A DNA stretch of 64,000 bases, from positions 1 to 64,000 of the IMG/VR virus record IMGVR_UViG_3300013286_000501; one strand, written 5' to 3'. Both the position numbers and the translations under genes were made by a program. Positions 1 to 43,276 of this stretch are shown piece after piece; the stretch's first letter is position 1, and each line of letters begins with the position of its first letter. The notes below the pieces were generated by a model that worked only from the letters and a program-made list of their open reading frames with translations, did not search any database and was not told where the DNA came from. This stretch comes from a virus.

Positions 1-58
1 CTCGAACCACTAACACTCTCCGTATGAAGGAGGAAGACTACCATTGTCCTACAGTACC
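1..58 (-). tRNA. tRNA with CAT anticodon (Met or Ile2), 3' part beyond window edge
   Basis: GGTACTG-TA-GGAC..GTCT, anticodon loop TTCATAC, T-loop GGTTCGAG truncated at position 1. Confidence 0.8.
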
Positions 59-674: not shown

Positions 675-1415
675 ATGAATAATATTCCTTTCCTACAGAA
701 AGTTGATAATCTAGGACAATGGGACATTCCTAAAGTTATCAATGATATCCGAAATTTATTTCAGTTATCTGGTTGTAACTGGGATACATGGCAAAGAAAT
801 AACAAATTAACACATGGTCAGTTTGTAGATTCAAAGTTACACGATAACCAAGGTTACTTAAACCTAACATACAATCCTGGATTGTCAAACTCTATTGAAG
901 ATCGTCTATGGTCATTTTCCGGAAGAAAGTTCCAAGAACGAAATGATGTAGCAGACGGTGATCTCCATACTCTGCAACCTGAACTAGCAGGAACATATAT
1001 TGAAGAGCTGTTTAAAAAACTAACACAAGAGCTAGGTCCTGTTCGGCTTCGTTTACATAACAAAGCGGATCAAAAAGGATTATATTGGCATCGAGATGAA
1101 TGGGACGATGTCTCACAATATCGATATCATTTAACCTTATGGACTAATCCTGGACATTTTATAGTCTGGACTAAAGATGAATTTACTTGGCAATATGGAT
1201 TTGATCCCAGAGAAACCAAGAAAGACATAAAAATCAATGCAGAATATATGCCAGTGAATGGCAATATATTTCAAATGGCTACCGGAGTATATCTCCATGG
1301 AGTATCTAGTATTGCAATAGGATGGAACGCTTCTCATCAAATGCAGAGTAGATGTCATCTTGTAGCAATACCTATGGTACCAAATAATAGGCATTTTGAA
1401 TATACTTACAAATAA
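675..1415 (+). CDS. putative Fe(II)/2OG-dependent oxygenase (aspartyl-hydroxylase-like cupin)
   Basis: WHRD (HxD) .. RYHL .. LHG .. RCHLV motif order; TAAATA 5 nt upstream. Confidence 0.55.
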   Translation: MNNIPFLQKVDNLGQWDIPKVINDIRNLFQLSGCNWDTWQRNNKLTHGQFVDSKLHDNQGYLNLTYNPGLSNSIEDRLWSFSGRKFQERNDVADGDLHTLQPELAGTYIEELFKKLTQELGPVRLRLHNKADQKGLYWHRDEWDDVSQYRYHLTLWTNPGHFIVWTKDEFTWQYGFDPRETKKDIKINAEYMPVNGNIFQMATGVYLHGVSSIAIGWNASHQMQSRCHLVAIPMVPNNRHFEYTYK

Positions 1416-2302: not shown

Positions 2303-2397
2303 TGGTGGAAAGCGGAGGAGTCGAACCCCACCCTGTTCTTCACAAGGACCCAGTTTTCAAGACTGGTCGGGGAACCAACTCCCCTGCATCACTTTCC
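2303..2397 (-). tRNA. tRNA-Ser(TGA) with 8/4, Sec-like cloverleaf
   Basis: 8-bp acceptor GGAAAGTG/CGCTTTCC, 4-bp T stem, 6-bp D stem with 4-nt loop, loop CTTGAAA, long variable arm, CCA. Confidence 0.85.
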
Positions 2398-2646: not shown

Positions 2647-2736
2647 TGGTGGATCATGAAGGAATTGAACCTAACTGCCAGCCACCCAACAATATTATGG
2701 CAACGATTTTACAGACCGCCGTTGGGAACATGATCC
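2647..2736 (-). ncRNA. D-armless tRNA-Tyr(GTA)-like RNA
   Basis: 8-bp acceptor GGATCATG/CATGATCC-ACCA, loop CTGTAAA, 3-bp T stem with TTCAATT, no D arm. Confidence 0.75.
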
Positions 2737-3128: not shown

Positions 3129-3140
3129 TTTCTTAATCGG

Positions 3141-3175
3141 AAAACAAAAAACCCCAGGGTTCTTAATCCTGGGGT
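3141..3175 (-). terminator. intrinsic terminator of putative attenuator
   Basis: ACCCCAGG-ATTAAGAAC-CCTGGGGT followed by TTTTTGTTTT. Confidence 0.85.
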
Positions 3176-3200: not shown

Positions 3201-3344
3201 TTACACTTTGGTCTCCTGGGACCCCGAGTTAATCTCCGGTGTGCGATCATAACTTGACAGACTATTAATCGCTAACCAGCCGGCGGACATGCATCCAACC
3301 TGTTTGGCTATCGTATTAAAATGTTGTCTTTGTTGCGATTGCAT
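3201..3344 (-). CDS. putative attenuator leader peptide (47 aa, contains all 20 amino acids)
   Basis: MQSQQRQHFNTIAKQVGCMSAGWLAINSLSSYDRTPEINSGSQETKV; lies between promoter and terminator; 3' end carries antiterminator GGGGTCC. Confidence 0.7.
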   Translation of the reverse strand: MQSQQRQHFNTIAKQVGCMSAGWLAINSLSSYDRTPEINSGSQETKV

Positions 3345-3402: not shown

Positions 3403-3431
3403 ATTATACATTTATTTAGTCTCGTTGTCAA
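3403..3431 (-). promoter_or_regulatory. consensus sigma70 promoter of tRNA array
   Basis: TTGACA-17nt-TATAAT; spacer also contains CTAAATA late-type motif. Confidence 0.85.
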
Positions 3432-3524
3432 CCACTTTTTGCAATTTTGGCAAAATATTTTAAAGTATTTTGTCTAGTTGCCTACAATGCTTGCTAACTT
3501 AACTCCATTGTACAGGTATTTACC

Positions 3525-4397
3525 TCACCTGTCAACCACTATTTGCAAATTTGGAAACATTGTTTTTGTAACTAATTCTGTTACATTTTTTGTTACCAGC
3601 TGTTTTCTAGCAGTCCACCAATTGTAACACCTATTTCTCAACTGGTCAAGTCCCACAGGATCTTGTATGTATTGATGTACTAGCGTAGGAACCAATGCCC
3701 AGTTGTCAATCTGTATAGCAGGAAAATCTAAACCATGCATGTTTGCCCAATAGTCACTGCGCTCAACTATAGGGATACATCCTGCTTCTAGAGCTTCTGT
3801 TACACGGAAGTTATCCATGATGATAGCACCACGAGGACAAGGAACAAACATACTGTCCCTATACATTTTGCTCATTTCGGCAGGAGTTAGTCTAGGACCA
3901 TGATGCCCTGCAACATATAAATTACCATTAGGTATAGAACTCATAGCCTGTGCCATGTTATTCCTATTTTGATCCCATCGTGCTCCCACGCAGGCCCATA
4001 TAAACTTACGTTGATCGGCTGGTGGATTTTCAGTATGTGCAGTGAATCCCGTATTGTAACCTAGCGGAATGTGCATGACATTATTGGGCACTGAATTGCG
4101 GTAGTAGTTTCTTAATACAAACTTGCAATCTTTGTAACTAGAAATGTCGTCAGCAGTAGATTCATCTGTTAAATGCACCATGCCAAAGTTTAAACCACGA
4201 CGAGTCATTTCTGCAACATATTCATTATGATACGGTGCCCAGCAAATTGCATCAACAATTACACTGTTGTCAATAAACTGTGTGTGATCTAGATTTTCAA
4301 CTGTGCGATGTGGAATATCTTGGAACAAGTATTCAACCCATTCATCTTCCCAAACACTACTTCTAGCACGTTGCCAAACAATTGTAAGTTCTTGCAT
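3525..4397 (-). CDS. exostosin/GT47-like glycosyltransferase
   Basis: SMFVPCPRG..FRVTEALEAGCIPI motif; start re-assigned to MQELT. Confidence 0.7.
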   Translation of the reverse strand: MQELTIVWQRARSSVWEDEWVEYLFQDIPHRTVENLDHTQFIDNSVIVDAICWAPYHNEYVAEMTRRGLNFGMVHLTDESTADDISSYKDCKFVLRNYYRNSVPNNVMHIPLGYNTGFTAHTENPPADQRKFIWACVGARWDQNRNNMAQAMSSIPNGNLYVAGHHGPRLTPAEMSKMYRDSMFVPCPRGAIIMDNFRVTEALEAGCIPIVERSDYWANMHGLDFPAIQIDNWALVPTLVHQYIQDPVGLDQLRNRCYNWWTARKQLVTKNVTELVTKTMFPNLQIVVDR

Positions 4398-4398
4398 G

Positions 4399-4947
4399 TT
4401 AATCTTTCTGAAATGCCCAAGTAACACCGTCAACTATCTGTGCATCTGGAACTAGTTCTTGAACAGCTTGCATAACACCGGGCCATGTGTGGTGATAATC
4501 GTCACCAGATAGTATACCACCGGATTTAACTTTTGGCATCCACGCTAGAATATCTGCCTTTACATCTTTGTATTCGTGGCTAGCATCTAACATGACAAAG
4601 TCTAGACTGTTGTCTTCGTATGAAGCTGCCGCTTCCAAACTGGTCATGCGTTTAGGATTATAATATCCTTCAACTGATTTCATATTGTCGATGAAATGAT
4701 TATATAGTTGGTCTTGTTGAACCATTTCGTCATTCTGATGTTCTAGAGATCCCGCCCATGTATCAACAACATCGAATTTAATATTCTTACCGCTGTTGGC
4801 AATTGCCACAGCAAGGTAAGAAGTGCTCTTGCCTTTCCATGCCCCTACTTCAACAAAGTGGTCGCCTTCATCTGCATTTTCTACAGCATAGGTGTAGATT
4901 GAGATGTAGTTAAACCATCCCTCGATTGTGTGATAAAAGTGATCCAT
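4399..4947 (-). CDS. class I SAM-dependent methyltransferase (Methyltransf_24-like)
   Basis: VEVGAWKGKS, LDASHEY, GDDY motifs. Confidence 0.85.
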   Translation of the reverse strand: MDHFYHTIEGWFNYISIYTYAVENADEGDHFVEVGAWKGKSTSYLAVAIANSGKNIKFDVVDTWAGSLEHQNDEMVQQDQLYNHFIDNMKSVEGYYNPKRMTSLEAAASYEDNSLDFVMLDASHEYKDVKADILAWMPKVKSGGILSGDDYHHTWPGVMQAVQELVPDAQIVDGVTWAFQKD

Positions 4948-5029
4948 TATATTTTTCCTTTTATTTTATGTATAAGATTTCTTAATAATTCTTCAGTTGG
5001 TGCAGAACACAGATCATGTGTGATTGTTT

Positions 5030-5113
5030 TTACTGTTTCAACAGGTATTCGACCCATTCATCTTCCCAGACACTATCTCTAGCACGTTGCCAAACTAAAG
5101 TTAATTCACTCAT
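5030..5113 (-). pseudogene. truncated paralog of the GT47-like gene (27 aa remnant)
   Basis: MSELTLVWQRARDSVWEDEWVEYL matches N-terminus MQELTIVWQRARSSVWEDEWVEYL of 3525-4397. Confidence 0.75.
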
Positions 5114-5661
5114 GGTTTTTTATAAATCCAGCAGCCATTTTCAATTTGGCAACCCGGAAATTGTTCGTCAGCGGCTTTCATTACTCCGGGAAAGTCTCTT
5201 TGATAGTCGTCCCCTGCTAGAACTCCGCCGGACTTAACTTTAGGTAACCAAGCCAAAATATCTGCTTTAACATTTTCATAATCATGGCTAGCATCCAATA
5301 GAACCATATCTAAGCTGTTATCTGCATATTCAGCGGCAGCTTCTAAACTAGTGGTTCTTTTTGGTGTATAATACCCTTCGACAGGTTTCATATTACTTAG
5401 AAAGTGTTCGTATAATGTATCAGCAATAACCATAGGATCAGTACAATGATACACTTCATCCGAACCACGCCATGTATCTACTACATCAAATTTAATTTGT
5501 TTGCCACTGTTAACAATTGTTGTAGCTAGATATGCTGAACTTTTACCTTTCCATGCACCAACTTCAACAAAGTGAGATCCGTCAACTGCTTCTGCAACTG
5601 CTCTGTTGTAGATATTGTGGAACTGAAACCAGCCCTCAATTGTTTCAAAAAAATGATCCAT
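5110..5661 (-). CDS. class I SAM-dependent methyltransferase, paralog of 4399-4947
   Basis: Same motifs; clearly high identity to neighbour. Confidence 0.85.
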   Translation of the reverse strand: MDHFFETIEGWFQFHNIYNRAVAEAVDGSHFVEVGAWKGKSSAYLATTIVNSGKQIKFDVVDTWRGSDEVYHCTDPMVIADTLYEHFLSNMKPVEGYYTPKRTTSLEAAAEYADNSLDMVLLDASHDYENVKADILAWLPKVKSGGVLAGDDYQRDFPGVMKAADEQFPGCQIENGCWIYKKP

Positions 5662-5678
5662 TATATTTTTCCTTTATG

Positions 5679-6518
5679 TTATAGGTATTCGTTAATTGAT
5701 TCTAACTCACCAGTGACAATATAGTCTTTGTATTTGTCTTGATTTTCTAGAATTGTTTTGGGGAAGTAATCGTCTAATGCAACTTTGACAAACGGACGGC
5801 TATCTAGTGGATTGAATCCCACACCCTTTTCCATCATCTCGTCAACGTTGATCTGTGCCAATATTTCTTCCTTGTTTAGTTCAGCGTGTGAAGACTCCTT
5901 GAGTTTAGTTTTAACCCATTCAGTATCGCCCATGTAGGTAAAATGCCAACCTGCGTGTTCGTACATTTTAATTCGGCCATCATCGTACTCATACTCGAGA
6001 TTATTTAATCCGAATCGTTGTGCTCTGAAATCTTCTGGCTTAATGACAAACTTCTTACGACCGCCTGTGATCCAAACACAATAGCTTTCGTGGTTGTCAA
6101 CTAACATGTAATTGAACTTGAAGTTAAAATAAGGAGTTCTGAATCCGTATAGGTCTCGAGGGTTTGCTCTAATGTCATCCATAATTTCTGGGCGTAGGAT
6201 TTCATCACAGTCACATACAATAACAATATCGTCATCTTCTGCACTAACTAGGCCTCGGACAATAGCATTACGTTGATGGTGGTCGTTGTCCCATGGACCT
6301 GTATTGGGCATGTCATCAACAACAACATAGATCATTTTATCATGCCATTGTGCAAATCGTTCCCAGTTATTTTTAAGAACAAGATCTTTTGGTTCACATT
6401 GGAATGTATGCGTAGCTTCTACAATAACAAAGTGATCAACATGATCATAAAGTTCACGTAGTCGTAGTTCCAATAGGTCTAGTTCATTTCTGAACAGTGA
6501 GCAGTCATATATTTTCAT
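5679..6518 (-). CDS. GT17-family (MGAT3-like) N-acetylglucosaminyltransferase
   Basis: IYDC..F.NELDLLELRL.EL..VD.FVIVEA, DCDEI, GWHFTY. Confidence 0.85.
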   Translation of the reverse strand: MKIYDCSLFRNELDLLELRLRELYDHVDHFVIVEATHTFQCEPKDLVLKNNWERFAQWHDKMIYVVVDDMPNTGPWDNDHHQRNAIVRGLVSAEDDDIVIVCDCDEILRPEIMDDIRANPRDLYGFRTPYFNFKFNYMLVDNHESYCVWITGGRKKFVIKPEDFRAQRFGLNNLEYEYDDGRIKMYEHAGWHFTYMGDTEWVKTKLKESSHAELNKEEILAQINVDEMMEKGVGFNPLDSRPFVKVALDDYFPKTILENQDKYKDYIVTGELESINEYL

Positions 6519-7213
6519 TTAATAATATCCATTCTATAAAGTTCGGGAGGGAATTCTTGCTGGTAATGATCTACATTACTATCAAACAAAGAATACGGGT
6601 TTAAGTTTGATTGTCTACCATACCAAAATTCAATATCGTACCTATAAAAATTCATAGGTGAAATAATTTGAGGATAAAATCTTACTGTACTTGGTAATTG
6701 TATTTTAGGCCAGCTGGCAATAAATTCAGATTTAGCCCAGTATTGATTACCGCTAAAATGAACAACTGGATCATACAACAAATTACAACCAACAATGTTA
6801 TATCCGTTATCTAATTGGTAGATGCATGACTGCCAATTTTCAATGCACCAATAGTCCATTAACCATCGCCAATGAGCCATTTTTTGCTCTGCATCAGTAC
6901 CTACGGCTGTTATACCCTTTTGATGTAGATACAATGCGTAGAATGGTTCATCGGCATCTACCGCATGAGTTTGCATTAGTATTGCAGTAGGATGTTCGTA
7001 TTCTTCTTTTGTTGCATCACAATGCACCCAATGAATATTTGGATGTGATTGTGATTTTATTAAATCGTTATAAGATTCTGGATCATAATGAAGATACACA
7101 TACAGTTCTGCATTATCTAGTAATCCACTAGATGTTAATTTATCAATACGTTCAGTTACTAACACTTCCCAGCCCGGCAAATTAGTAACCTGATAAAATA
7201 TTTTTAGTTTCAT
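6515..7213 (-). CDS. hypothetical protein, probable glycosyltransferase-like
   Basis: YLHQKG and HFSGNQYW motifs; glycan-cluster context. Confidence 0.5.
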   Translation of the reverse strand: MKLKIFYQVTNLPGWEVLVTERIDKLTSSGLLDNAELYVYLHYDPESYNDLIKSQSHPNIHWVHCDATKEEYEHPTAILMQTHAVDADEPFYALYLHQKGITAVGTDAEQKMAHWRWLMDYWCIENWQSCIYQLDNGYNIVGCNLLYDPVVHFSGNQYWAKSEFIASWPKIQLPSTVRFYPQIISPMNFYRYDIEFWYGRQSNLNPYSLFDSNVDHYQQEFPPELYRMDIIK

Positions 7214-7214
7214 G

Positions 7215-7778
7215 TTAGTTGGTTGTAAATGTTTCTTTTACAAAATCAATAAACTTTTCATTGTGTGAAAGAACACCTAACCCTGCCGAGTGAGTAAAAA
7301 ATACTTTATACATTGGAATTTCTTCAAACACTGCCATGGTCTCGGGGAACAGTGCAACATCGTGCATAATAATAACTGCATTGGGTCCTGATAGGAACTT
7401 TGACCAAGTTTTGTAATCATTCTTTACGGCATCATATGTATGTAATCCATCAATGTGTAAAATATCAATAGGAGTGGACCAGCCTAGTGCCACATCGTCA
7501 AAAAACCCTTTGATTAGTTCTATGTTATTATATTGATTTTCTTTTATAACATTTTTTACAACTTCATAAGCATCCGGATGATGTCCGGCATGTTCGTCGC
7601 CTTCAAATGAATCAATACCGTATACTGTGCCAATATCTGGTTCCGCTAGGCAGAATAGACTATACCCGTAGTCTACTCCTAGGTCAACAATAACTTTAGG
7701 TTGTAATTGCTCCACTAGCCAGTTGGCAAAGTATCTGTGGCCTTTCCATGCGCTATCTAATGTTTCTATATCAATCAT
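7215..7778 (-). CDS. class I SAM-dependent methyltransferase (Methyltransf_24-like)
   Basis: VDLGVDYGYS, LHIDGLHTY, MHD. Confidence 0.85.
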   Translation of the reverse strand: MIDIETLDSAWKGHRYFANWLVEQLQPKVIVDLGVDYGYSLFCLAEPDIGTVYGIDSFEGDEHAGHHPDAYEVVKNVIKENQYNNIELIKGFFDDVALGWSTPIDILHIDGLHTYDAVKNDYKTWSKFLSGPNAVIIMHDVALFPETMAVFEEIPMYKVFFTHSAGLGVLSHNEKFIDFVKETFTTN

Positions 7779-7783
7779 TTAAT

Positions 7784-8530
7784 TTACTCTATGCTATTTA
7801 ATTTTTCAGAGCATAGGCCCAATAGATTATTGAAACCTTGTTCTTGTAATGTGTTGGCAAATGCATTTACCTTGCTGTGATCTTTCCAAAAGCGAGTTGG
7901 AAGATTCTCTATGACATATCTAATGTCAGATTCTTTAAAAAATCTAGGTATGTTCCACGGACCATGGAATCCAAATGTTGGACCTAACCATTCATTCTCA
8001 GTGGCAAACTGTCTAGCTAGATCAACCGGAGCATACTCTATTCCATATTCTTCTTGCAACAGTTTTCTATGATCTACACAGATGGCAATGTCTTCGTTAT
8101 GTCCTGCAAAGCCACCTAGCTGAACACGCTGATCCCGGAGTGCCTCAATCAGCTTTCTTGAGCGCAAACTAAACCCACCATTACCCATTACAATACCCTG
8201 TTGAGGCCAAGGCCAGATTGCACCAATGTAGTCGTACTTTAGGAAATCGTCAGTCCATAGTTCCTGATTGACAGCCATAGCATCCCATTGTATGACCAAT
8301 GCATGTTCAGTTTCTACATGCAGCCAAAGGTGCTTGATCATAATCTCACTGTAGTCGTGTAGATTGATATTGGGCCTAATGGGAATGTGTTTAGCACCTT
8401 GGATGATCTCTCGGTCGCTAAACACCAATACTTCTTTACAATCTATAGTCTTTAGTGTTTGTTCAATAGCAAACTTGGCCAGCGTATGACTAGCGGTATC
8501 TACAATGACCAAAGAGATGTCTTTACTCAC
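7784..8530 (-). CDS. DUF5672-like putative glycosyltransferase
   Basis: QWD, FLKYDYIGAIW, GNGGFSLRS, NEDI, FGFHG. Confidence 0.75.
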   Translation of the reverse strand: MSKDISLVIVDTASHTLAKFAIEQTLKTIDCKEVLVFSDREIIQGAKHIPIRPNINLHDYSEIMIKHLWLHVETEHALVIQWDAMAVNQELWTDDFLKYDYIGAIWPWPQQGIVMGNGGFSLRSRKLIEALRDQRVQLGGFAGHNEDIAICVDHRKLLQEEYGIEYAPVDLARQFATENEWLGPTFGFHGPWNIPRFFKESDIRYVIENLPTRFWKDHSKVNAFANTLQEQGFNNLLGLCSEKLNSIE

Positions 8531-9303
8531 TTCCACAACTCCGGAACACTGTCCCACAATGCATCAAAGTCTAGGTAAGGGTCTTTGCCAGACGATTCCA
8601 TGATGTGAAATGCAAGTCCGGGAATAGGACTGAATAGCATGACATCTGGTTTGTTCCAAACTAGATTAATTGATTTGTTCTCAACCCAAGCTGCGTTCTG
8701 TGCAGTAAGTGTAACGACATCCTGAAAGTGATTAAGGTACTTGTCGTAAATTGCTCGGCTAGCTAAACAGGTGTAGGTAGTATGCTTGACTGTTCTATAA
8801 TGACGATATGGTCCTAACAACAAGATGCTTTCGTAAATCTCACTAACATAACGCCATATGTCATCATGTGGATTCATCGCAACCATTTGTCCAGTATTGC
8901 TTTCAAATTGGTCAACAGTATCAATCATGTCTTGGATTGTTTCGGGCTTGTGTATATAATCGTCCTCTACGTGATACCAAAGGTCGGAACATTTTTGTTC
9001 TACTAATTCATATACCTTTGACATAGTATAAGCATTGCCCGTGCCGCCCTTGACGGGTATAAAGGTCACTGGAACGCCACACCGATTTATTATAGTATTA
9101 ATGTCTGCTATGCAGGTGGGATCGCTATGGTCGTCCAATACAAATAGTTCTACATCGTGACCTTCAACCTGATTGATACTGTTAACCAAACTGCTAACAC
9201 ATACATTAATAATTTCAGGTTTGGTTTTATTAATGTATCTGCCGCCGTGTTGGGCAAATACCTTGCCACACGTTCTCAATATTATTGTTAGTTTTCTACC
9301 CAT
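8527..9303 (-). CDS. GT2-like glycosyltransferase
   Basis: VLDDHS and YHVEDDY DxD-like motifs. Confidence 0.7.
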   Translation of the reverse strand: MGRKLTIILRTCGKVFAQHGGRYINKTKPEIINVCVSSLVNSINQVEGHDVELFVLDDHSDPTCIADINTIINRCGVPVTFIPVKGGTGNAYTMSKVYELVEQKCSDLWYHVEDDYIHKPETIQDMIDTVDQFESNTGQMVAMNPHDDIWRYVSEIYESILLLGPYRHYRTVKHTTYTCLASRAIYDKYLNHFQDVVTLTAQNAAWVENKSINLVWNKPDVMLFSPIPGLAFHIMESSGKDPYLDFDALWDSVPELWK

Positions 9304-10307
9304 TACATTATTCTTTCAGACCATGTCTTTGGAGTTTGATCATTAATGATTTCCAAAGGATAGCTGTAGTCAAAAGGTCTTGCGCCGCGTGACTTAATGT
9401 AATCAATTGTACTGCGAATACCTTCGATTAATGTTGTAGTTGTTTTATACCCTAATTGCTCTCTTGCTTTAGTAGCATCGCAAGTTGCATAACGAATTTC
9501 TTTAGGGCGAGCCGGAAGATAGATAATTTGATCTTTAGGAAAGTTCATCTCATCACAAATAAGTTCAGCTAAATCTTTAATGGATACAAATTCTTCGTCT
9601 GGACCAATGTTAAAGGTATCGTTTTTAATGTTGGGATCTAATGCTAGTTTTTCTAAACAGTACACACAATCGTTAATAAAGCTAAAACATCTCATCTGAC
9701 CACCATCACCATAGACAATAGGAGCTTTACCTTGTAAAATACGATTAATAAAGATGCTCATTACATTACGGAATGGATCGTCATATCGTTGCCTTGGTCC
9801 GACAATGTTATGTGGAATAGCAACTATCCATTCCATATTATTCATCTCTGCAATACTCTTCAGAACATCTTCGCTTGCCACTTTGGCAATAGCATACGGA
9901 TCAACCGGGTGTGGAATTTGTGTTTCTTTGTAGGGGTATTCTTGATTACCAAAACGTGCCATACTTGAGCAATAGACAAACCGTTTTACTTTATTTTGAA
10001 TAGAAGCGCTGATAGTAGCTACACTGGCTTGGAAATTATTCTTAGTAATAAAGTTAGGACTAAAGATACTAAGTCCTTCGTGTGCGGTGGCTGCGGTATG
10101 GAATACAACATCGCATCCTGCAATGATTTTAGCCATTGCATCAATATCGCAACAATCAGCTTGATGGAATTCAACTCTCTTTGGTACATTATCTAGATAG
10201 CCTCCAATTAGAGTATCATTGCCTACAACTTCATGTCCTAGTGCTAACATTCTGTCAGCTAAATGACTGCCTAAAAATCCTGCAATCCCTGTAATAAAAA
10301 TTTTCAT
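9303..10307 (-). CDS. NAD-dependent epimerase/dehydratase
   Basis: ITGIAGFLGSHL Rossmann motif, YAIAK (YxxxK); start re-assigned to MKIFITG. Confidence 0.9.
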   Translation of the reverse strand: MKIFITGIAGFLGSHLADRMLALGHEVVGNDTLIGGYLDNVPKRVEFHQADCCDIDAMAKIIAGCDVVFHTAATAHEGLSIFSPNFITKNNFQASVATISASIQNKVKRFVYCSSMARFGNQEYPYKETQIPHPVDPYAIAKVASEDVLKSIAEMNNMEWIVAIPHNIVGPRQRYDDPFRNVMSIFINRILQGKAPIVYGDGGQMRCFSFINDCVYCLEKLALDPNIKNDTFNIGPDEEFVSIKDLAELICDEMNFPKDQIIYLPARPKEIRYATCDATKAREQLGYKTTTTLIEGIRSTIDYIKSRGARPFDYSYPLEIINDQTPKTWSERIM

Positions 10308-10325
10308 ATTTGTTGTTATTTTGTT

Positions 10326-10400
10326 TGGTCCGCCCACCAAGAATTGAACTTGGAATTAAGACTTAGAAGGTCCTTGTTATATCCATTTAACTATGGGCAG
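10326..10400 (-). tRNA. tRNA-Arg(TCT)
   Basis: Cloverleaf, loop CTTCTAA, CCA; TTGACA-16-TATAAT promoter at 10409-10436. Confidence 0.93.
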
Positions 10401-11135: not shown

Positions 11136-11806
11136 TGAAAAAAACTATTGCCCTGTTCTTACACCAACCAATGTGTAGCATACAGTCGGGAAATGGGATC
11201 ATTAACGCATTACAATCCCATTACAATTTTAAAATTTTTACCAAACACGAGTTAGAAGACAGCTTCTTTGATGATGTTGATATGCTAGCCTTTCCCGGGG
11301 GCTTTGGCAACTCTGATAGCTATGACTATCTAATGAAGATCAACAGTAAGCCCATTACCAACTTTATAAACAGCGGTGGCTATTACCTTGGTATATGTAT
11401 GGGAGCTTACTGGGCAGGTAAAAATTACTTTAAACTGTTAGAAGGTGTTGATGCTGTCCAATACTACAAAAGACCCACAGCCTGCACTCGTCGTCCACAT
11501 ACTAAAAATATGCCAGTGACTTGGCAAGGAGTAGAGGATAAGATGTTCTTTAATGATGGATGTACATTTGTGGGCTCGGGCAAGTATGAAACCTATGCTA
11601 CATACTCAAATGGTGAGCCTATGGCTATCATTCAAAATAGATTAGGATTAATAGGTTGCCACCCAGAGAGTGAGAAGTTTTGGTATGATAGTTATCCGCA
11701 GCTTATCGGACAATATCACAATGGCGCTCACCATACCCTACTACTAGACTTTGTTAATACTTTATTTCGAAGTAGCTCTGAAGGTTCCGTCCCAGTCACT
11801 AGGTAA
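11135..11806 (+). CDS. class I glutamine amidotransferase-like (BPL_N-type) protein
   Basis: FPGG, GGYYLGICMGAY, HPE triad motifs. Confidence 0.75.
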   Translation: MKKTIALFLHQPMCSIQSGNGIINALQSHYNFKIFTKHELEDSFFDDVDMLAFPGGFGNSDSYDYLMKINSKPITNFINSGGYYLGICMGAYWAGKNYFKLLEGVDAVQYYKRPTACTRRPHTKNMPVTWQGVEDKMFFNDGCTFVGSGKYETYATYSNGEPMAIIQNRLGLIGCHPESEKFWYDSYPQLIGQYHNGAHHTLLLDFVNTLFRSSSEGSVPVTR

Positions 11807-13822
11807 GTCTTTGTTACGCATATCGGCAATGCGATCAATCCACAGTTCATAGTAGTGATCCATATTGCCATCAAAGCTACCTGTAAGTTCTTTACATAGC
11901 GTGATAGCTTTATCCCAATCCTGTTCGCGATAGTATTGTAACATAAGCTCATGTTGTTCTCTAGCACTGTTCCATGCTTCTGCTACAGTCTCATCTGGCA
12001 TGTAATTCACTGTAAAGATATTAACACCAACTGTCTTACCTTTAACTGCAATACAGTCCAGAGGTATTGTAAAGTATATATCGCTAACACGTTGCTCTGT
12101 GCTTTCACTAATAATGATCTTTTGTCCGTAATTCTTTGTTTGGCTTTCTAATCGTGCAGTTAAGCTGACACTGTCACCTAGTACGTCATAACCAAAGCGG
12201 TCCTTACTGCCAATATTACCAATTAGAGTTTGCCCAGTATTAATACCTAGTCCCATACCCACACGTGGTTTGCCTTCTTCTTCTAACTCAATGTTGAACA
12301 AGTCAACAGCATGAATCATTTCCAATCCAGTACGAACAGCAGCATGGGCATGATCAGGATCTTGTTCTTCTTGAATAGGAGCACCATGAACGTGCAATGA
12401 TGCATCACCAATGAACTTGATCAAACAACCGTTGTTGCGTAGAATAGGTTCAGAAATAGCAGTCATGTAACGATTCATTGTATTGGTAAATGCTACAACA
12501 TCCTCGCCGTAGGTCTCACCTAGGCCTGTGAAGTTACGCATGTCGCTCATTATAATAGTAAGCTCTTTCTTTTCACCGCCTAGTTTAATAAAGCTAGGAT
12601 CTTTCTGTAGACGTTCTACAATAACAGGATTGACATATGATCCAAACTGTTTTTTGATTGCAGACTTTTGTAAGTATTCGCTTACAAATTTGACACTATA
12701 TGCATGAATGTATACCAAACTAGTAGCAACAATAAACCAAGTGGCGTCCAATAAGATTCTGGAAGTTTCGTATAGGTATGATACAGCAAAGTGACTAGCA
12801 CCGAGAAAGATAATAATAGGAAGAAAAGCATAAGTCCACCTTGATAAAAATAATACCAACAGTCCTGCTACAAGAACGGCAAAGATCTCTGCATCATCGG
12901 CCCACTCCGGTCTCTTGATAGATGTTCCGCTCATTAACGTGCCCAACAAAGTAGCCTGCATATATTGGGGCCATACCTCGCCTCGAGCAGTAGCAACGGG
13001 ATTAACAAGCCCAGCAGCACTTAACCCAACAACAACAACTTCACCGTTAAAGGTTTGTGGTAGTTTAGCTAGACTGTATTCTTGCGGAGTCCTGCTCCAA
13101 TCAATCCATACACGGCTTAATGCATCTGTTTCAACTTTTCCAAATTTAGGAACACGTAGAGCTTCTACACCCATGTCTCCAATCTTAATTTGGAACTTGG
13201 GATCCTTGGCTGCAACACGCAATGTCTCCAATGCTAGGCTAGGATGAATGATGTTATCACTCATAATGACCAAAGGCATACGGCGAACAACACCATCAAC
13301 CTCTGGGAATGTATTAACAACTCCAACACCTGCGGCAGCTTGTTCAACTGCTGGCACGTTGGCAATGATACCAGGATACTCTACTATAGCACCACCCGGA
13401 TCTGCACCTACTACTTGGGCAACACTCTTGGAAGGTATGTTCTTATCCTTGGCTCCACCTAGTTCAGGCAGGACCACGGGCAACTGACCGAGTACCCTAG
13501 CCAGTTGGCCATCTTGACCAAATCGGTCTGGCTCTGGCATAAGAATATTAAACACGACAAGGCCAGCGCCACGGTCGTAAAGGTCTTTAATAATAGCCCC
13601 ATAGGTTGCCCTTGGGAACGGGAATTGTCCATATTTTTCTAACGCCTCTTCATCTATGTTAACTGTGTTTACGGGAATGATTTCTGCCGGCTGTGCGGTG
13701 ACTAACTGGTCAAAATAACGGAGTCTAACTGACTCCACAAAACTAGGATCGGCAAGTCTAATGCCTAACATTAAGGCCAGTGTCACTACAGCCAGCCACG
13801 GTGATAATAATATTTTCTTCAT
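11762..13822 (-). CDS. CHASE2-domain class III adenylate/guanylate cyclase
   Basis: N-terminal TM, CHASE2 (IDEEAL..GQFPFPR, DGVVRR.PL), 3 TM, cyclase SDMRNFT, KFIGDA, YDVLGD..ARLE. Confidence 0.92.
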   Translation of the reverse strand: MKKILLSPWLAVVTLALMLGIRLADPSFVESVRLRYFDQLVTAQPAEIIPVNTVNIDEEALEKYGQFPFPRATYGAIIKDLYDRGAGLVVFNILMPEPDRFGQDGQLARVLGQLPVVLPELGGAKDKNIPSKSVAQVVGADPGGAIVEYPGIIANVPAVEQAAAGVGVVNTFPEVDGVVRRMPLVIMSDNIIHPSLALETLRVAAKDPKFQIKIGDMGVEALRVPKFGKVETDALSRVWIDWSRTPQEYSLAKLPQTFNGEVVVVGLSAAGLVNPVATARGEVWPQYMQATLLGTLMSGTSIKRPEWADDAEIFAVLVAGLLVLFLSRWTYAFLPIIIFLGASHFAVSYLYETSRILLDATWFIVATSLVYIHAYSVKFVSEYLQKSAIKKQFGSYVNPVIVERLQKDPSFIKLGGEKKELTIIMSDMRNFTGLGETYGEDVVAFTNTMNRYMTAISEPILRNNGCLIKFIGDASLHVHGAPIQEEQDPDHAHAAVRTGLEMIHAVDLFNIELEEEGKPRVGMGLGINTGQTLIGNIGSKDRFGYDVLGDSVSLTARLESQTKNYGQKIIISESTEQRVSDIYFTIPLDCIAVKGKTVGVNIFTVNYMPDETVAEAWNSAREQHELMLQYYREQDWDKAITLCKELTGSFDGNMDHYYELWIDRIADMRNKDLPSDWDGTFRATSK

Positions 13823-13865
13823 TTCTTCTCCAGGGTGTATACACCTATTATCATTGTATTTAACA

Positions 13866-14366
13866 TTAACCCATAAAGCGGGTAAAGAATACCCAGGATA
13901 GTGCAACAACAGGAATTAGAACAGCAACACCGCCTACAAAGTATAGGAATACTTCCACAACTTTTGCTAGTTCTTCTCGCTTGATACGCTTCTGTCTTTC
14001 TATTTCAACAGCAGCAGCGGCACGCTCTTTGTAGATACGAATACGTTCTTTCATCATATCTTCCCAGACATCTCCATTACCGGAATAAATCAGTATATTT
14101 TTTAGTGCCCTTTCGTCTTCTCGAAGTTTCTTAGAAGCCATTGCTACCTGAAATGCTAGACCTCGAACATCTGAATCGGACCTGTTAGCACTTTCTATAC
14201 GCAATTTGGCATTTGCAGTATGTACCTCATCACTAGAACTAAAGAACTTACTGAAATCATTGTATAATTGCGAGATATCTTTACCTAGTGCTTGAGCTTT
14301 CTTAATGCCATCTACTGCGCTCCTGGCTGCTGCAAATGCTAAACTGATACTAACGGGATCAATCAT
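13866..14366 (-). CDS. hypothetical helical protein with C-terminal TM anchor
   Basis: ORF track; hydrophobic C-terminus. Confidence 0.6.
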   Translation of the reverse strand: MIDPVSISLAFAAARSAVDGIKKAQALGKDISQLYNDFSKFFSSSDEVHTANAKLRIESANRSDSDVRGLAFQVAMASKKLREDERALKNILIYSGNGDVWEDMMKERIRIYKERAAAAVEIERQKRIKREELAKVVEVFLYFVGGVAVLIPVVALSWVFFTRFMG

Positions 14367-42713: not shown

Positions 42714-42789
42714 TATACTTCCTTTGTAATCTATACAGACTGTATAGTGTAGATATTTAATCAAAAGAAAAGCACCCAAAGGTGCTTTC

Positions 42790-43070
42790 TGGTTGTTTTG
42801 GTAACAAGGTAAGTCCTACCTCGGAGATCAAGCGGCTAGCGCCCAGACCTCATCGTTAGATGCGTTTGCATTTAGGTTTTTTGTGTCTTTGACCGGGTTC
42901 CCCCAATCCTAACGGCTTCTACATTGCCGGACAGTCCATTTCATTACTCTTGACCCAATCGATCCTGTGTCATCCCCACCTAAATATACAGCATACACTT
43001 AGGTGGAGATGTCGGGCACTGCCCCCGAGTCTTGAATCCTTTTCAATCTACTTCATACCATCATAACTTT
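42790..43070 (-). ncRNA. ssrA: circularly permuted (two-piece) tmRNA; outer ends approximate
   Basis: 3' acceptor half (TCGGG-GGCAGTG-CCCGA-CATCTCC-ACC, ends near 43002) precedes 5' half GGGGATG (starts 42977); G3:U70; tag ANASNDEVWALAA* at 42828-42869. Confidence 0.9.
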
Positions 43071-43075
43071 ACTTA

Positions 43076-43276
43076 TCATTTTACAAATCTCGGCATACGA
43101 TCTTCGGTGCCAGCGTATTGAAAGTTATCCAACATAGGCACAAGACTGGCCATGTCACTGGCAGGGTGGCGATAAATTTCTTTTAAGTCGGCACCGTCGA
43201 TCAACATGAAATACAACTTGGTTGTACCTTCATCAACTTGTGGCTTAAAAATATATTCCAAATCTTCTAAAATCAT
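43076..43276 (-). CDS. hypothetical protein
   Basis: ORF track with SD AAGGA. Confidence 0.55.
   Translation of the reverse strand: MILEDLEYIFKPQVDEGTTKLYFMLIDGADLKEIYRHPASDMASLVPMLDNFQYAGTEDRMPRFVK

Follow-up and report, generated by a model that had tools for sequence, protein, structure and literature searches.

A tRNA gene whose core is tied into a pseudoknot, in place of the cloverleaf, lies in the DNA analysed here: the first 64 kb (64,000 nucleotides, nt; the whole stretch is called the window below) of the 80-kb IMG/VR virus record IMGVR_UViG_3300013286_000501. CheckV puts the completeness of this record at 22%, and the record is therefore a fragment of a large phage. The gene, a pseudoknotted tRNA-Tyr(GUA), occupies 90 nt on the minus strand at positions 2647–2736, including an encoded CCA. 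It is a new structural variant of tRNA and is widespread in phage and planctomycete tRNA arrays. From sequence comparison, we put at roughly 80% the probability that it is a functional elongator tRNA-Tyr whose core is threaded otherwise than in a cloverleaf. Comparative analysis shows five helices: an acceptor stem of 8 base pairs (bp), a T stem of 3–4 bp, an anticodon stem of 6 bp, and two further helices that we call P2 (6 bp) and V (3–4 bp). A covariance model built from relatives, R1, scores the gene at 97.4 bits (E 5e-29), against 29 bits or less for all ordinary tRNAs of the window.

Read 5′ to 3′, the RNA consists of GGAUCAUG, UU, CCCAAC, GGCGGU-CUGUAAA-AUCGUU, GCCA, UAAUAUU, GUUGGG, UGGC, UGGC, AGU, U-AGG-UUCAAUU-CCU-U, CAUGAUCC, A and CCA; all coordinates of its parts are on the minus strand. 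The 5′ acceptor strand GGAUCAUG (RNA 1–8; 2729–2736) pairs with CAUGAUCC (2651–2658), which together with the discriminator A (2650) and the encoded CCA (2647–2649) forms the 3′ end at 2647–2658. The linker UU (RNA 9–10; 2727–2728) leads into the 5′ strand of P2, CCCAAC (RNA 11–16; 2721–2726), which begins where a D arm usually starts and runs directly into the anticodon stem. The anticodon arm (2702–2720) has the 6-bp stem GGCGGU/AUCGUU, whose outer two pairs are G·U, and the 7-nt loop CUGUAAA, with GUA at 2710–2712. Because the anticodon stem directly abuts CCCAAC, no D hairpin can be drawn: UU and CCCAAC are all that lies between the acceptor and anticodon stems.

The enlarged variable arm starts immediately 3′ of the anticodon stem with the first strand of V, GCC(A) (RNA 36–39; 2698–2701). 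It continues through the A/U-rich loop L2, UAAUAUU (2691–2697), the 3′ strand of P2, GUUGGG (RNA 47–52; 2685–2690), and loop L3, UGGC (2681–2684), and is closed by the second strand of V, (U)GGC (RNA 57–60; 2677–2680). The T arm (2659–2673) pairs AGG with CCU around UUCAAUU and is flanked by a U·U opposition; its loop is of the GTTCRANYC type (GGUUCAAUUCC at 2660–2670). An earlier note, written from the letters of the window alone, had read off the perfect 8-bp acceptor with ACCA, the canonical tyrosine loop, the 3-bp T stem, a D arm replaced by CCCAAC with its complement GUUGGG, and a GCCA...UGGC bracket around that complement. All of these stand; GUUGGG is found 30 nt downstream, and the partner of GCC, a point the note had left open, is the second GGC.

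Relatives were collected with four IUPAC patterns run over public collections. A pattern fixing both complementary hexamers returned 7 viral loci, and one restricted to the anticodon loop, a GGC and the T arm returned 52. A third, fixing the loop, TTGC, GTGGC and GGTTC, returned 59 viral loci and 16 genome contigs, four of the latter with real members. In the least constraining pattern the fixed elements were GGTTC, the loop, the two U that follow the stem, CGG and TC, so that the P2 3′ strand and the V stem stayed free; it returned more than 116 viral loci and 106 genome contigs. Every pattern contained CTGTAAA. Structural parsing yielded 157 distinct family members, 94 from viral contigs together with four metagenome-assembled bacterial contigs and 63 from bacterial genome contigs. 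An exact 25-mer search of viral contigs gave no match, and a search with the neighbouring glycosyltransferase-like protein found no relatives. Three family members were also compared by blastn with 50,697 cultured-phage records without a match, so no isolate phage carrier is known from that collection at blastn sensitivity.

Covariation was assessed on three alignments: A1 (39 sequences), whose patterns did not fix CCCAAC/GUUGGG, and A2 (97 sequences) and A3 (55, mainly bacterial), both built with patterns that left the P2 3′ strand and V free. On A1, a standard pair occupies 1014 of 1014 cells, and P2 has changed on both sides at four of its six pairs. On A2, 97% of cells are paired versus 75% in shuffles, a value that none of 500 shuffles reached; 21 of 27 pairs show compensatory changes, and sliding the partner columns lowers pairing to 43–66%. 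Each helix contributes: on A2 the acceptor stem is 99.7% paired with 7 of 8 pairs compensatory, the anticodon stem 100% with 4 of 6, P2 98.5% with 5 of 6, and V, formed by GCC with the second GGC, 100% with 3 of 3. P2 variants include CCCUAC/GUAGGG, CUCUGC/GCAGAG, CUACAC/GUGUAG, CCAUUC/GAAUGG and CUACGA/UCGUAG, and V occurs as GGC/GCC, GUC/GAC, GAC/GUC, GCU/AGC, ACC/GGU and CUGC/GCAG. A3 repeats the covariation of both helices and adds a covarying fourth pair to V. Among the distinct viral relatives with an intact acceptor that the least constraining pattern recovered, 85 of 87 carry a perfect 6/6 complement to the P2 5′ strand, compared with about 7% expected by chance. Covariation between CCCAAC and GUUGGG across homologues was the test that the earlier note had named for its proposal, and the answer is strongly positive.

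P2 alone is a nested helix around the anticodon arm, and RNAalifold, which handles no knots and was given no prior proposal, independently predicts it in that position. It is V that makes the knot. P2 (RNA 11–16 with 47–52) and V (36–38 with 58–60) interleave, each with its own support, which is the mark of an H-type pseudoknot; the pseudoknot is thus genuine. The idea that a pseudoknot substitutes for the D arm is accordingly sustained by two helices that both covary and cross, and the structure is as firmly established as comparison of sequences permits. Nearest-neighbour energies over the bare scaffold come to −6.7 kcal/mol for P2 and −3.4 to −4.4 kcal/mol for V.

A nested, unknotted fold, with P2 and no GCC/GGC stem or with a G·U-rich variable hairpin, is highly improbable. 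The minimum-free-energy fold of the window's own gene (−22.7 kcal/mol) does place a variable hairpin where P2 should be, and nested-only programs are unable to display P2 and V together. That hairpin, however, is paired in 72% of cells versus 71% in shuffles, and GCC with the first GGC in 90.7% versus 90.0%, whereas V is paired throughout, covaries at every position and gains its covarying fourth pair in the bacterial set. We also rejected an extended variable stem using U34 and U35, which competes with the two basal G·U pairs of the anticodon stem. Where G has changed to A at positions 17 and 18, as it rarely does (loci L054 and L019), pairing with U is kept, which weakly favours retaining the 6-bp anticodon stem.

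The same data bear on whether the gene is dead. A tRNA pseudogene decaying after loss of its D arm would be rejected by default tRNA finders, as this element is, and one relative (L056) has a broken acceptor stem. Covariation refutes this explanation and leaves it next to no probability: 157 distinct phage and bacterial sequences show compensatory changes in all helices and key positions that are nearly invariant. The earlier inference that perfect pairing argues against decay is thereby extended from one sequence to a design conserved over about 157. The L056 copy itself (L056:1141–1231, plus strand) has a 3′ acceptor strand that does not match its 5′ strand, is seemingly chimeric with the 3′ end of another copy, and is probably recombinant or dead.

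The second U of the linker is invariant on A3 and present in at least 90% of A2. YGG opens L3 in nearly all parsed family members, with its second G invariant and its first G present in at least 90% of A2. The distance from the third V pair to P2 is 7–9 nt in most members and 8 nt here. GGTTC and CC of the T arm are invariant on A2, GGTTC itself being fixed by the search patterns. The fourth position of the T stem, U·U in the window, is a true pair in 36 of the 97 A2 sequences and in 52 of the 55 in A3, giving an 8/4 division between acceptor and T stems. Together these two stems make up the usual 12-bp branch.

Standard tools pass over the gene. Default ARAGORN and the Rfam tRNA model (RF00005) leave it uncalled, with no RF00005 match listed even at E ≤ 10, as does the mitochondrial (armless) mode of ARAGORN. 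Its best Rfam match is tRNA-Sec (RF01852), at 23 bits against a gathering cut-off of 47; we rejected this identity on that score and on the anticodon, GUA and not UCA. At 80% stringency ARAGORN proposes a tRNA-Gln(UUG) whose D stem has two pairs, whose anticodon stem is mismatched and which lacks U33; this too was discarded, because the fold is not conserved. Rfam matches to Plastid-ycf2 and mir-4774 are noise. The result is a systematic blind spot: because tRNA finders miss the knotted gene, the tRNA sets of phages and arrays appear to be without Tyr. A published survey lists Tyr among the rarest array isotypes (PMC4758250).

Gene content strongly suggests that the knotted RNA can be charged and decodes as tRNA-Tyr. 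Across 61 carrier loci annotated with ARAGORN, each of the 19 other amino acids has a tRNA in 23–42 loci, whereas Tyr has one in 2. Sixteen loci hold at least 20 tRNAs; 14 of them are without a detected Tyr tRNA, and in five Tyr is the sole missing amino acid. A 343-kb phage record that is 99% complete has 32 detected tRNAs, all within 20 kb, which cover 19 amino acids plus a CUA suppressor; the knotted gene is its only GUA tRNA and lies directly upstream of tRNA-Asp. The two loci with a detected Tyr, which are related phage arrays, carry beside the knotted gene an odd second cloverleaf class II GUA tRNA with discriminator U and an atypical anticodon loop, a questionable Tyr (L033:4399–4486, minus strand, and L042:10753–10841, plus strand). 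The CUA-anticodon (amber suppressor) tRNA of the 343-kb phage (G002) lies at L150:60–134 on the plus strand, and another is present in L211; a CUA tRNA beside the knotted Tyr gene may reflect stop-codon reassignment.

Most features expected to be read by the tyrosine enzyme and the ribosome are also kept. The bacterial tyrosyl-tRNA synthetase (TyrRS) identity set comprises A73, G34 and U35. The discriminator is A in 154 of 157 members, G1–C72 is present in 96 of 97 sequences on A2, GUA is found in all members, and CCA is encoded in 81% of viral-set copies. The loop CUGUAAA has U33 and A37 and a length of 7 nt, on the covarying 6-bp stem. A 3–4-bp variable stem stands where the class II arm would begin, but with its loop tied into P2, a form that TyrRS may or may not accept. 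An anticodon-blind structural scan of 2.1 Mb of fetched array-rich loci found the fold only with GUA; these loci had been collected by Tyr-loop patterns, and the scan shows only that many neighbouring array tRNAs do not use the knotted fold. A PF00579 (TyrRS/TrpRS family) gene was not found in four of five large carrier phage records, among them one 99% and one 100% complete, so charging, if any, would be by the host enzyme.

Charging with a different amino acid, for instance serine through seryl-tRNA synthetase (SerRS) as for 8/4 allo-tRNAs, with recoding of UAY codons, is very unlikely. SerRS reads a long free variable helix, whereas the variable stem here is 3–4 bp and tied into the pseudoknot; the Tyr identity elements A73 and G34/U35 are present, and carrier arrays already have tRNA-Ser genes while being without Tyr. 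What speaks for serine is that an 8/4 branch and an enlarged variable region are common to serine-accepting allo-tRNAs (PMC5389517), and that tRNA-Ser genes of the same array also have discriminator A.

About 58 bacterial genomes, nearly all of Planctomycetota, carry the knotted gene, in their case without an encoded CCA. They include the complete chromosome of Schlesneria sp. T3-172 (NZ_CP172346.1), where the gene lies in a 40-tRNA array, and the chromosome record CP030884.1. Most bacterial copies sit within chromosomal arrays of 30–40 tRNA genes, in the conserved order ...Asp, Leu(CAA), knotted gene, Glu(CUC), Leu.... In a few cases the gene stands alone among ordinary genes, as in two genomes with the order C92 amidase, knotted gene, CheW, MCP; no conserved special neighbour of the solitary copies was found. 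A normal tRNA-Tyr, a 7/5 cloverleaf, is present as well in each of the four carrier genomes checked, and in two it belongs to the classical Thr-Tyr-Gly-Thr cluster. Hence the knotted tRNA is a feature of accessory tRNA sets and not the housekeeping tRNA-Tyr. Canonical genes have a 3-bp variable stem at the place of V, which suggests a class II tRNA-Tyr as the ancestor of the knotted form, the D loop and the D 3′ strand having been lost and the variable loop having grown.

Several points weigh against a functional elongator tRNA-Tyr. The invariance of the anticodon loop is partly forced, CTGTAAA having been part of all search patterns. The T stem in the window's subgroup has only three Watson-Crick pairs plus U·U. 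With L3 as UGGC, one nucleotide is left between GG and the V stem, a tight geometry if GG docks on the T loop. Finally, carrier bacteria keep a canonical tRNA-Tyr, so the cell is independent of the knotted gene, and there is room for a non-translational role.

That last point also favours a knotted RNA acting outside translation, as a decoy or sponge for nucleases that target tRNA-Tyr or as a regulatory or processing element of the array. Arrays have been discussed as anti-defence units (PMC12803027), and defence systems do target tRNA-Tyr (PMC11555353, PMC13096335). We nevertheless consider such a role unlikely. A decoy would be expected to keep the canonical variable arm that the nuclease sees, whereas it is just this arm that the knotted RNA alters. 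What charging and decoding require is conserved, from A73, G1–C72 and the 12-bp branch to the 7-nt loop with U33 and A37 and, in most phage copies, CCA. Phage arrays with tRNAs for the 19 other amino acids, including an array in a 99%-complete genome, are without any other Tyr tRNA.

Taking the functional tRNA-Tyr as the preferred reading, we can propose how its chain would be arranged. P2 would stack on the anticodon stem and replace the D stem, because C16 of P2 and G17 of the anticodon stem are adjacent and both paired; this stacking would resemble that of a D stem through position 26. The P2 5′ strand would then stand in place of canonical positions 22–25, and the strand from the variable arm in place of 10–13, toward the elbow. 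YGG, which follows that strand as the D loop follows 10–13, is a candidate stand-in for G18–G19 of the D loop in facing the T loop. The connection from the acceptor stem to P2, at the elbow end of the latter, would be made by the UU linker, close to the normal U8–A21 site. The A/U-rich L2 would have to run back from the top of V to the P2 base, and it may occupy a groove of P2. A 6+6-bp stack combined with an 8/4 branch would have dimensions like those of tRNA-Sec and allo-tRNAs. Overall, the predicted molecule is L-shaped, with the outline of a normal tRNA and a different path of the chain. Host TyrRS would presumably charge it by way of A73, G1–C72 and the anticodon GUA, the short variable stem being positioned as usual, and EF-Tu and RNase P would act on the intact acceptor/T branch.

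Why such a form might be selected is suggested by analogy with known tRNA-targeting defence. Retron-Eco7 and Septu PtuAB deplete Escherichia coli tRNA-Tyr by cleavage of the variable arm; the tRNA-Tyr of phage T5 is reported to be resistant owing to its distinctive variable loop, and phage T6 escapes through amplification of its tRNA-Tyr gene (PMC11555353, PMC13096335). The likeliest selective reason, though a speculative one, would be that the knotted form withstands defence nucleases whose cut falls in the variable arm of canonical tRNA-Tyr. The fuller proposal is that the gene encodes a natural topological isomer of tRNA, with one D-helix strand transferred to the variable arm, the first non-cloverleaf elongator tRNA of bacteria and their viruses, which spread with accessory arrays by evading variable-arm nucleases such as retron-Eco7 and Septu PtuAB while keeping its function with TyrRS, EF-Tu and the ribosome. 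We advance it tentatively, with the odds against it as a whole.

A full-text literature search found no published description of the knotted design seen here. According to a 2024 paper, every known bacterial tRNA is a cloverleaf (PMC11551756). Among candidate structured RNAs in IMG/VR, the motif DNAVirus_1423 is described as sometimes overlapping tRNA-Tyr calls (PMC10690425); it might be the same family. If the proposal is right, a widespread natural tRNA with a core rebuilt by a pseudoknot would be an exception to the cloverleaf rule and would mean that the tRNA shape tolerates another path of the chain. It would offer a natural test case for the recognition of shape, as opposed to connectivity, by TyrRS, RNase P, EF-Tu, modification enzymes and the ribosome, and a candidate orthogonal scaffold for genetic-code engineering. 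If nuclease evasion is also true, it would represent a new kind of move in the contest between phage and host over tRNA.

In the window, ARAGORN finds 15 tRNA genes on the minus strand of 201–2640 and a 16th at 10326–10400. The knotted gene lies on the same strand as this array, 6 nt upstream of tRNA-Glu, and is the first gene of the preserved cluster. At the contig end a cut-off tRNA (1–58, minus strand, 27.7 bits) is present, so the array extends past the end of the record. One array member, tRNA-Ser(UGA) at 2303–2397 (minus strand), has an 8-bp acceptor and a 4-bp T stem, with discriminator A and not G. The Rfam tRNA-Sec model gives it 41 bits, below the cut-off and above its Rfam tRNA score. 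It is an (8/4) allo-type tRNA like those of alpha-proteobacterial phage clusters (PMC5389517). Elsewhere in the window, a permuted (two-piece) tmRNA gene lies at 42788–43116 on the minus strand (Rfam tmRNA_permuted 100.6 bits, alpha_tmRNA 64 bits) and hints at an alpha-proteobacterial host or origin. The 8/4 tRNA-Ser and the permuted tmRNA together fit the phage group described in PMC5389517.

Other features accompany the array. Perfect or near-perfect sigma-70 consensus promoters (TTGACA-N16/17-TATAAT) occur on the tRNA strand at 3403–3431, 2269–2296, 3507–3535 and 469–497; two of them fall within array gaps, and another precedes the Tyr gene by about 670 nt. The motif ATTTTAATAC(GAT) is repeated upstream of the array at 2795–2872 and 3300–3322 (minus strand), as two direct copies and one near reverse complement. 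A terminator-like hairpin with a T run is present at about 3140–3175 (minus strand), between small open reading frames (ORFs) of 47 and 50 amino acids that have no Pfam or PHROG match. An ORF of 246 amino acids on the opposite strand (675–1415, plus strand) takes up the 755 nt that separate tRNA-His from tRNA-Gln. Homing endonucleases are known inside phage tRNA clusters; this ORF has no Pfam or PHROG match, and that reading is without support here. Adjoining the array, at 3525–10340 and 11762–13909 (minus strand), are glycosyltransferase-like genes (GT47-like, GT17), two Methyltransf_24, DUF5672 and an NAD-dependent epimerase/dehydratase, followed by a CHASE2-adenylate/guanylate cyclase, a cargo unusual for a phage.

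Among the closest known RNAs is the canonical class II tRNA-Tyr(GUA) of bacteria and phages (RF00005), exemplified by the housekeeping genes of carrier Planctomycetota at L261, L265, L267 and L268. It shares GUA in a CUGUAAA-type loop, A73, G1–C72, the GGUUCRAWUCC T loop and a short 3-bp variable stem right 3′ of the anticodon stem. The canonical tRNA, however, has a 7/5 branch and a D hairpin, CCC-GAGCGGCCAAA-GGG, whereas the knotted form divides its branch 8/4 and is without that hairpin; a variable loop grown to about 17–20 nt supplies the second strand of its D-like helix. The (8/4) and (9/3) allo-tRNAs and the (8/4) tRNA-Ser and tRNA-His of bacteria and alpha-proteobacterial phages (Mukai et al., NAR 2017, PMC5389517) share the 12-bp 8/4 branch, a long variable region and occurrence in phage clusters. 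Their fold is nonetheless a cloverleaf that retains the D hairpin and leaves the long variable hairpin free, whereas here the D hairpin is absent and the variable loop is engaged in P2. That paper describes no Tyr species, the word pseudoknot is absent from it, and "Tyr" occurs once, in a reference title. tRNA-Sec (RF01852) has an 8-bp acceptor, a 6-bp D-type helix and a long variable region in common with the knotted gene; the anticodon here is GUA in place of UCA, and the 6-bp helix is not a hairpin.

Other departures from the cloverleaf differ in kind. D-armless mitochondrial tRNAs such as metazoan mt-tRNA-Ser(AGY) (PMC9427863, PMC4394434) likewise have no D hairpin between acceptor and anticodon stems, but they lose an arm and rely on adapted mitochondrial partners, whereas the knotted tRNA rebuilds the helix with a distant strand, in phages and bacteria. 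Canonical tRNA-Tyr, the 8/4 and allo-tRNAs, tRNA-Sec and the mitochondrial forms thus all retain a D hairpin or else do without the helix. Plant RNA viruses with their pseudoknotted tRNA-like structures, and tmRNA with its tRNA-like domain, likewise provide natural tRNA mimicry with a non-cloverleaf topology. Those RNAs do not serve as adaptors in decoding, and either their acceptor arm is formed by a pseudoknot or they have no anticodon arm. In the knotted tRNA-Tyr, by contrast, the knot is confined to the D/variable core, and there is nothing unusual about the acceptor, T and anticodon arms.

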